NCBI GenBank assembly: GCA_965116795.1
Contig: OZ220716.1
Coordinates: forward strand, 1,610,503 to 1,674,502
Length of the DNA: 64,000 nucleotides
DNA from: Gammaproteobacteria bacterium
Lineage (GTDB): Bacteria; Pseudomonadota; Gammaproteobacteria; JAJFKG01
Direction of reading: 5' to 3'
Positions 35,360 through 35,641 of the stretch are shown here, in pieces. Each line of letters begins with the position of its first letter. Within the stretch, counting starts at the first letter, position 1. The position numbers were made by a program, and so were the translations under genes. The notes below the pieces were generated by a model, which ran no database searches, was not told the origin of the DNA, and saw only the letters and a program-made list of their open reading frames with translations.

Positions 35360-35641
35360 CGCTGCGCGCCAAGGAGAGCGATAGCTCAAGGCGCGTAGTC
35401 CGCGGAAGCCGAGGCTTGTCATCGCAAACGGAGTTGCCGGAAAGCCAACGCTCGCAGGCAAGCGCAGTAAGCGATGACAAGCTATCCTCGGCGTCGAGTC
35501 ACTTGAGAGGCGATCTGCAGTGTGCGTCAGTACACGTAGGAATCGGTGACGAGGACGGCCGCGGCAACTTAGGTAGTCACGTTAGCGAGTCGATTTTGGG
35601 CATGGATGAACGAAATCTTTCACGAGATAGTGACTCAATTG
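35360..35641 (+). mobile_element. 282-nt GC-rich structured element, copy 1 (putative mobile ncRNA or non-autonomous element)
   Basis: About 89% identical by eye to 37769-38050, same length and orientation; multiple helices with compensatory changes; no TIR or TSD. Confidence 0.75.

Follow-up and report, generated by a model that had tools for sequence, protein, structure and literature searches.

The window, which is the whole 64-kb stretch of DNA analysed here, carries two copies of a 282-nt element on its + strand. Copy 1 (subfamily A, 35360..35641) is intergenic and lies directly downstream of the terminator of csrA, a gene named by Pfam. Copy 2 (subfamily B, 37769..38050) is inserted antisense inside an N6/N4 DNA methyltransferase gene, and excising exactly 282 nt at this site restores a 557-aa − strand frame. 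The methyltransferase gene is adjoined by a TdeIII-type restriction gene that a DDE insertion sequence has in turn split. The two copies are 89% identical overall (91% in the first 211 nt, 88% in the last 51 nt) and have a GC content of 57-58% compared with 41% genome-wide, in agreement with the sequence-only reading, which had described a GC-rich pair of about 89% identity. Copy 1 is preceded by the target tetranucleotide CGCC (35356..35359, + strand), a C at position –4 followed by three free bases and the junction; copy 2 is preceded by CAAT (37765..37768, + strand), again with C at –4.

The genome to which the window belongs (G000) is complete and consists of a single contig of 2,447,832 bp. 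It contains eight full copies, each exactly 282 nt long: four are identical (copy 1 and the copies at C1:1056538, 1928804, and 2328542), another three share 89% identity with them, and the last shares 85%. Besides these, we found one 71% relic and three fragments, namely a 37-nt piece at C1:1403080 that comprises only helix P1 (described below), a 45-nt 5′ piece, and a 54-nt 3′ piece. Since the flanks differ between all copies, the ends of the element are exact. All eight full copies lack terminal inverted repeats and target-site duplications (TSDs), as had been proposed from the two window copies. A host inverted repeat thought to be restored by removing copy 1 is visible by eye, but it is imperfect and not necessary for fixing the ends. 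Two large ORFs read through a 94-codon open frame of the element, and three of the four genic insertions in this genome are in sense orientation, copy 2 being antisense. A check of the complete genome for longer, ORF-bearing versions found none. The assembled contigs of four sequencing runs break at the element, and one contig of 283 nt is the element, as expected of a repeat; neither an empty site nor a circle joint was seen in these contigs.

Relatives of 236-302 nt with the common termini CGCTG... and ...GCGACWCNNNNG are present in a genome of the same genus, and further families of the class, several in number, have them too. Among metagenome-assembled genomes, they occur in those labelled Aquirickettsiella, Rickettsiella, Coxiellaceae, Legionellales, and Legionella sp., as well as in Thiodiazotropha, Sedimenticola, Chromatiales, Thiotrichaceae, Methylococcaceae, and others. 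Three Thiodiazotropha contigs show a common right flank and differing left flanks, which is likely an assembly or nested-insertion artefact, and were left out. From the class, we sampled 400 genomes with a completeness of at least 90%, scored two candidates per genome, and obtained a match in 42 of them (among which G041 and G129 are flagged unpublished), corresponding to 37 of 309 genera. In the complete genome G046 (3,446,950 bp), a first look gave about 365 candidates, and scoring 40 of them yielded 43 matches. The element was also found in 100 of 120 metagenome loci fetched by the search pattern; a scan of viral contigs returned two loci, neither of them a true element. Clustered at 93% identity, the genomic members fall into at least 28 diverged subfamilies. 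Because lengths within the family (248, 253, 277, or 295 nt) are not confined to multiples of three, the idea that the element inserts in-frame was dropped.

The fold of the element was derived with RNAalifold from 26 representatives, one each for 26 of the 28 subfamilies. The consensus contains 44 pairs in nine helices, and 32 of the 44 pairs show compensatory changes on both sides. Overall, 93.8% of cells are paired, compared with 30-46% if partners are slid by one to three columns, and the observed pairing values were reached in none of 500 shuffles. Covariation is therefore strong in this larger alignment. It includes the compensatory swaps first noticed between the two window copies (GAGC..GCTC versus GGAC..GTCC and AGTCAC/GTGACT versus TGTCGC/GCGACA), which are present and lie in helices that covary throughout the family.

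From 5′ to 3′, the fold is composed of an unpaired first nucleotide (C1), helix P1 with an apical hairpin, the P2 domain, helix P5 enclosing a further hairpin, and a six-base tail. In copy 1, P1 (35361..35399, + strand) is formed by nt 2-11 and 31-40 and capped by a small hairpin; its first pair is a G·T(U), with C1 between it and the junction. This helix is 96.6% paired among the representatives, and double changes occur in four of its eight pairs. The long-range helix P2 (35400..35564, + strand) joins CCGCGG at nt 41-46 to CCGCGG at nt 200-205 and encloses a variable central hairpin (49-133), a 3-bp GTC/GAC helix (139-141 with 195-197), and a GTGTGC..GTACAC hairpin (161-176). Pair types in P2 vary between representatives (CG 15, GC 9, AU 1; AU 14, GC 12). 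P5 (35575..35635, + strand) pairs AGTCAC (nt 216-221) with GTGACT (nt 271-276) around the hairpin GATTTTGG..CGAAATC, and helices 7-9 are 92-97% paired. The single-stranded 3′ tail CAATTG (35636..35641, + strand) ends in a final G. Within this tail, the C at –6 is near-invariant family-wide, while –4 is A here and C in about half of the subfamilies.

The G·U(T) at the first position of P1 is kept in 24 of the 26 representatives, so the fold is possible on the + strand only. Relative to shuffled controls, the folding z of the + strand is –5.1 versus –3.5 for the − strand with RNA parameters, and –4.1 versus –2.2 with DNA parameters. The strand specificity claimed earlier is thus borne out with both parameter sets. 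The proposed pseudoknots (AGTTGCCG/CGGCAACT and GCCAACG/CGTTRGC) are not supported: they fall within the variable central hairpin, a part missing from many relatives, and in copy B1 one pair is broken with no compensatory change. A search of the 64-kb window against Rfam gave zero matches at the gathering threshold and only chance-level matches at E up to 10, and ten loci with diverse members gave zero matches as well, which fits an unrecognised structured element. We also found no published description of the element, by concept or by sequence words, in open-access papers and bioRxiv. These results support an unrecognised, structurally constrained, strand-specific element that is absent from Rfam.

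A filled and an empty site could be compared directly in genome G049. The 300 + 300 nt flanking the element at locus L022 match, at 100% identity, a paralogous and intact IS copy (L083), in which they are contiguous between 794 and 795, and no base is duplicated, lost, or added at the junction. Together with the multi-copy family, this pair confirms that the element is mobile and inserts base-exactly without a TSD. The empty site L083 carries the C at –4, demonstrating that the target C is host DNA. A comparison of filled sites, likewise suggested at the outset, gave this C as the target consensus: it is present in 144 of 151 independent insertion sites. Among non-redundant sites, it was found in 64 of 65 from genomes (53 of 54 if the 11 sites from G062, which is flagged unpublished, are excluded) and in 50 of 52 from metagenomes, for which two sites with unclear 5′ ends had been set aside. 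For these two sets combined (114/117), the binomial p is about 5e-72 at a background of 21% C. G046 provides an independent set, since the search pattern cannot match its copies; here, 30 of 34 sites have the C, and the other four all have T.

Neighbouring positions carry signal as well. C is found at –5 in only 5 of the 117 sites, T is enriched at –6, –5, –2, and –1, and G is depleted at –6, –2, and –1; +1 is T in 28 of the 65 genome sites. The resulting insertion logo reads T/A/G, C, N, T/A, T/C↓T/A (arrow, junction). Otherwise, positions –3 to –1 vary freely: the four identical copies are flanked by CCAC, CAGT, CGCC, and CTCT, and the last flank base across the copies of this genome is c, t, c, t, c, t, g, and c. 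The same one-base rule is common to at least 28 diverged subfamilies, which argues for a specificity set by a protein rather than by a guide encoded in the element, as used by IS200/IS605, where targets vary from member to member. The right end differs. In the subfamilies of this genome (ends ATTG and ACTG), the base at –4 of the right end is A, and hand tallies gave A in about 12 of the 28 subfamilies from genomes and, for the metagenomes, in 13 of 21 full-length copies. The most prolific subfamilies have a 3′ end of the type CNNG↓ (CTTG, CCCG), and the tail in G046 is CC(C)G.

We next consider in which form the element is active. The cumulative GC skew of the window's genome places the origin near 0.63 Mb, with the terminus at about 2.0 Mb. 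The folding strand coincides with the lagging-strand template in eight of nine copies of this genome and in 38 of 43 scored copies of G046 (88%, p 1.2e-7), where the bias exceeds the 62% of long-ORF length found on the leading strand (p 1.2e-4). Copy 2 in the window is oriented in line with replication and not with its host gene. No significant bias was obtained for G049 (5/8 copies) or when orientation was scored by local GC skew (18/31 loci). Such a lagging-strand-template bias is described as a hallmark of IS200/IS605 single-strand transposition (PMC5027513). Moreover, the motif GCGNAGC occurs at hairpin tips of the element: the 26 representatives contain 32 occurrences on the top strand versus 10 on the bottom strand, and shuffling gave an expectation of 9.3±3.1 with a maximum of 17 in 200. 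According to PMC13037366, GCGNAGC mini-hairpins are far stabler as DNA than as RNA, are found at single-stranded DNA (ssDNA) phage origins, and bind SSB poorly. The loop motif is indirect as an argument for DNA versus RNA. The sequence-only reading had left the choice between a structured RNA and an ssDNA element; the structural constraint it postulated is real, and the topoisomerase-I-type target described below, the lagging-strand-template orientation, and the DNA mini-hairpin loops favour ssDNA. The working form is therefore likely to be ssDNA at the replication fork.

The one-base target rule resembles the cleavage preference of type IA topoisomerases. [quoted passage not shown] For the wild-type E. 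coli topoisomerase I, C at –4 permits strong cutting, T permits very weak cutting, and A or G permits none; an R169A-type enzyme prefers A at this position instead. The site used by the E. coli enzyme in vivo is described in PMC9352719 as an AT-rich asymmetric TCNTTA/T motif with a cut 4 nt past a single, strictly required C. The insertion junctions of the element have the same features, namely C at –4, a scarcity of C at –5, a T-rich context, and T as a weak alternative (PMC3467081, PMC9352719). Since topoisomerase I acts on ssDNA, this match also counts in favour of a DNA form.

We tentatively explain the multi-copy spread, the exact ends and precise insertion, the covarying strand-specific fold, the C(–4) motif, and the replication-linked orientation by a non-coding mobile DNA that likely moves as folded ssDNA and for which the host topoisomerase I is the predicted cutting and joining enzyme, in place of a transposase of its own. 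We hold this reading at slightly less than even confidence. In the proposed mechanism, the top strand would fold while on the lagging-strand template, and topoisomerase I would cut the left junction at 5′-CNNN↓C1, becoming linked to the 5′ phosphate of the element as a 5′-phosphotyrosine and leaving a 3′-OH on the flank. A second cut would release the right end. The donor could then be resealed by attack of the flank 3′-OH on the enzyme-linked right flank, and the 3′-OH of the element could attack its own enzyme-linked 5′ end to give a circle or, alternatively, attack an enzyme-linked target cut at CNNN↓N to give an insertion. The conserved fold would stand in for a transposase in holding and presenting the ends, and chemistry and polarity would be those of the IS200/IS605 “peel and paste” pathway.

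The right end is only partly in line with this model. In the prolific subfamilies, which end in CTTG or CC(C)G, the circle junction CNNG↓C would again be a topoisomerase-I-type site. In subfamilies with A at –4 of the right end, the symmetric model with two cuts fails, because the wild-type E. coli enzyme does not cut with A at this position. A subfamily with the right end ATTG nonetheless has four identical copies in its own genome. The right-end cut is thus unexplained for subfamilies with A at –4, including the active one of this genome. Type IA topoisomerase genes number one each in G000, G061, and G063 and two each in G001 and G049. With a single gene in the first three genomes, topoisomerase I, if used, would be the housekeeping enzyme. 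No precedent for transposition driven by a type IA topoisomerase was found in the open-access literature and bioRxiv.

The best-surviving alternative, which is live but in our view unlikely, assigns the cutting to a Y1 (HUH) transposase acting in trans. The element would then be a non-autonomous IS200/IS605-like (PATE-like) or REP/RAYT-like element, with a genome-encoded Y1 enzyme binding the P1 and P5 hairpins and cutting 3′ of a degenerate target. The absence of terminal inverted repeats and TSDs, the subterminal hairpins on one strand, the 5′-only target, and the lagging-strand-template bias are all as in IS200/IS605 (PMC5027513). Genes for Y1_Tnp proteins are at hand in many of the genomes concerned: seven in G000, five in G049, and three in G046, and at least one in 33 of the 42 element-positive genomes (G041, G129, G273, and G283 among the Y1-positive genomes are flagged unpublished) and in 11 of the 12 strongest positives. 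The feet of P1 and P5 carry GTAG or ATAG and thereby resemble REPs, for which a GTAG-type motif is typical. In G046, a 137-aa Y1-like ORF is found at a distance of about 150 nt from one copy; since that genome has a copy roughly every 9 kb, this proximity may be due to chance.

Against a Y1 enzyme, identical copies share no target of 4-5 nt, and the one fixed base is the same across subfamilies. Neither resident IS200 type resembles the element in its ends or hairpin loops, and topoisomerase I is the enzyme with a preference for C far above T at –4. The association with Y1 genes is weak, since 236 of 358 element-negative genomes also have them (Fisher p 0.12; p 0.07 for the strongest positives). 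Y1 genes are too common in the class for this association to favour either side. A Y1 match was not found in G001 (90% complete), G005 (99%), G322 (95%, two full copies), G063, and G065; G063 is an Aquirickettsiella genome with at least ten copies of the element. Of the TSD-free routes named in the sequence-only reading (an HUH or IS110-type enzyme in trans, or a ribozyme or retro mechanism), the HUH route stays in play as a rival, a retro route is less likely, and the IS110-type and the intron or ribozyme routes gained no support.

It is improbable that the element is moved by an unrecognised dedicated enzyme, neither Y1 nor topoisomerase I, that either shares the C(–4) preference or acts at breaks made by topoisomerase I, so that DNA of the element would be captured at stalled cleavage complexes of the latter. 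Such an enzyme would agree with a right-end rule that differs from the left-end rule and with the patchy distribution of the family over 42 of 400 genomes. Neither a recurrent neighbour gene nor, in the complete genome of the window, an autonomous version was found. Within ±3 kb of the copies, no protein recurs: the clusters obtained were spurious and consisted of translations of the element, and the other neighbours (Ada-like, AhcY, and ISAs1-type) were unrelated.

More improbable still is a structured RNA, intron-like or retro-mobilised, in which the ends of a read-through transcript would be set at the RNA level before copying into DNA. The elaborate covarying fold with its near-invariant G·U first pair would suit an RNA, as would the predominance of sense among the genic insertions in the window's genome and the presence of reverse transcriptase genes in G000, G001, G049, and G021; G005, however, carries the element and gave no reverse transcriptase match. 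Copies truncated at the 5′ side with intact 3′ ends also exist, but they are an ascertainment effect, since the search pattern required the 3′ half. Rfam, including its intron models, gave no match, the termini are not of the GUGYG..AY type, and U is not the last base of the 5′ flank. Copy 2 is antisense within its gene, and the replication-linked orientation (88%) is stronger than the gene-strand share (62%). Insertion is exact, with neither a poly-A tail nor variable junctions, and the triloops are of the DNA mini-hairpin type (PMC13037366).

The remaining candidates can be dismissed briefly: a DDE-type MITE lacks support because both terminal inverted repeats and a target-site duplication are absent; IS110/IS1111 elements with a bridge or seek RNA are not supported because there is neither a conserved multi-base target in the flanks beyond the one base nor a core repeat (DEDD genes are present in G000 and G049 and were not found in G001, G005, and G021); and group I or II introns, or a ribozyme route, are not supported because boundary motifs are absent (termini CGCUG...UUG, flank bases without the 5′ exon U rule), Rfam gave no match, and copy 2 is antisense.

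If topoisomerase I indeed moves the element, this would constitute a new mechanism of DNA mobility that needs no protein encoded by the element or dedicated to it. It would account for the spread of repeats in reduced symbiont or intracellular genomes without transposases, and it would show that an essential enzyme has a mutagenic side activity and provide a natural folded-ssDNA machine for study. Taken further, and with less confidence than the mechanism itself, the family may represent a widespread protein-less selfish DNA whose folded single strand makes the essential topoisomerase I its transposase (CNNN↓ cut, lagging-strand template, end swap); it would be the first mobile element to depend on a housekeeping type IA topoisomerase, with DNA structure replacing a transpososome. 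Owing to the C(–4) rule, the mechanism can be tested directly, as a topA allele of altered selectivity is predicted to shift the rule. Even if driven by Y1, the family is common: about one in ten of the genomes sampled from the class have it, and one genome has hundreds of candidate copies. The element breaks short-read assemblies, and genes are either interrupted by it or gain 94 in-frame codons from it.

Several known systems share features with the element. Rickettsia palindromic elements are small non-coding repeats of intracellular and symbiotic bacteria that can sit in-frame in protein genes and are shorter, simple palindromes. The read-through of the element by two large ORFs is reminiscent of them, as far as their general description goes, but its lengths are not confined to multiples of three. 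IS91, ISCR, and Helitron elements (HUH Y2) produce no TSD, use a tetranucleotide on one flank, and have a hairpin shortly before the 3′ end. Many 3′ ends of the element are CTTG, which is similar to these systems according to the general description of their target motifs, whereas the element has only one fixed flank base; a Y2_Tnp search gave no match in five genomes, but none in any control genome either. REPs are palindromes of about 35 nt, and REPINs are inverted doublets of them. With REP, BIME, and REPIN sequences and their RAYT proteins, the element shares the non-coding dispersed hairpins and the GTAG-like feet, and many of its hosts carry Y1-like genes; it differs in its size of 236-302 nt, its asymmetry, and its long-range helix, and its own genome contains no RAYT-type gene, only IS200-type genes.

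The ssDNA origins G4 oric and ssiA resemble the element as strand-specific folded ssDNA of 100-300 nt with GCGNAGC/GCGNNAGC mini-hairpins (PMC13037366). They are fixed parts of replicons, in contrast to the dispersed insertions studied here. With topoisomerase I cleavage, the element shares the C at –4 in T-rich surroundings, the lone C within an AT-rich patch, T as weak second choice, and an ssDNA substrate. Unlike in the proposed mechanism, no report of this enzyme inserting foreign DNA was found in open-access papers and bioRxiv, and the right end of the element does not always obey the rule.

The closest resemblance is to IS200/IS605 elements and PATEs. Both lack terminal inverted repeats and TSDs, present a hairpinned active strand on the lagging-strand template, recognise a target on the 5′ side only, and insert exactly (PMC5027513), and the chemistry proposed here is the same, with a 5′-phosphotyrosine intermediate and a 3′-OH leaving group. 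IS200/IS605 elements encode Y1 or have an autonomous relative that does, whereas our element contains no ORF and no tnpA or tnpB remnant and has no longer relative in its complete genome. Their target is a family-specific 4-5-mer read by an internal guide; here, a single C at –4 is fixed, and the one base between junction and P1 leaves no space for a 4-nt guide. Finally, the whole 236-302 nt of the element form a conserved multi-helix fold, and its ends differ from those of resident IS200 copies. Among the known systems, the element therefore acts most like a single-strand transposon of the IS200/IS605 type, from which it departs in two of the features that define that family.

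Two different mobile elements have entered the restriction-modification locus of the window. The TdeIII-type restriction endonuclease gene on the minus strand is interrupted by a DDE insertion sequence with 26-nt inverted ends (window 36060-37089; transposase ORF 36171-37064, Pfam DDE_Tnp_1_3), which separates the gene into two pieces at 37037-37585 and 35748-36023. Between them, the DDE insertion sequence and copy 2 of the 282-nt element in the methyltransferase gene inactivate the whole restriction-modification system.

A single ORF of 94 codons (...LRAKE...DEDGRGNL...) runs uninterrupted across the whole element in all eight own-genome copies. 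Copies with this ORF are located at window 35360-35641 and 37769-38050 and, on the single contig of the genome, at C1:2328542-2328823 (minus strand) and C1:1693814-1694095 (plus strand). Two host genes with long ORFs, of 765 and 828 aa once the element is taken out, contain it in sense and exactly in the 94-codon frame. Because orientation and frame agree in both cases, these two host proteins may simply gain 94 residues.

We also identified a copy within a group II intron (locus L024 from G049:C2, element at 1407-1654), inserted in sense in the reverse-transcriptase ORF. Its left flank matches RVT_1 up to profile position 183 and its right flank matches GIIM; one mobile element is thus nested within another. 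Three Thiodiazotropha MAG contigs (L028, L042 and L053) have a right flank of 147 nt in common, which is the 5' end of an IS5-like transposase gene in reverse orientation, but their left flanks differ. Either insertions are nested here, or short reads were assembled into chimeras at a 302-nt repeat. One full element of 252 nt (L109) lies in a MAG labelled Flavobacteriales, on a contig binned outside Gammaproteobacteria, which could be due to horizontal transfer or a binning error.

Solo fragments were found in the own genome as well: two 5' pieces comprising only the 5' helix P1 (C1:1403080-1403116, preceded by CAGA and thus again with C at -4, and C1:1214521-1214565) and a 54-nt 3' piece (C1:1511388-1511441). 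Events that were abortive or imprecise may have left these pieces behind as footprints. In metagenome loci (L239, L224 and the identical L209, L244 and L267), 5'-truncated copies begin near the conserved AGTCA box and retain intact 3' ends; the search pattern demanded the 3' half of the element, placing 3'-truncated copies outside its reach.

In the copy-rich genome G046, a Y1_Tnp-like ORF of 137 aa (58.7 bits; L327, G046:C1:3162257-3165592, ORF 1453-1866, minus strand) precedes an element copy (motif at 1106-1122) by about 150 nt; both are on the same strand, and the ORF seems to lack part of the C-terminus. The own genome is very rich in repeats (141 merged regions of at least 300 bp each), including a 2.7-kb repeat encoding an IS66-family transposase (Pfam DDE_Tnp_IS66; window 25840-28550, C1:1636342-1639052) with about ten occurrences. 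Its seven IS200-type Y1 transposase genes, one of them at window 46801-47163 (C1:1657303-1657665), represent two types with four and three copies, and their TTCA/TTCCA-like hairpin loops differ from those of the element.
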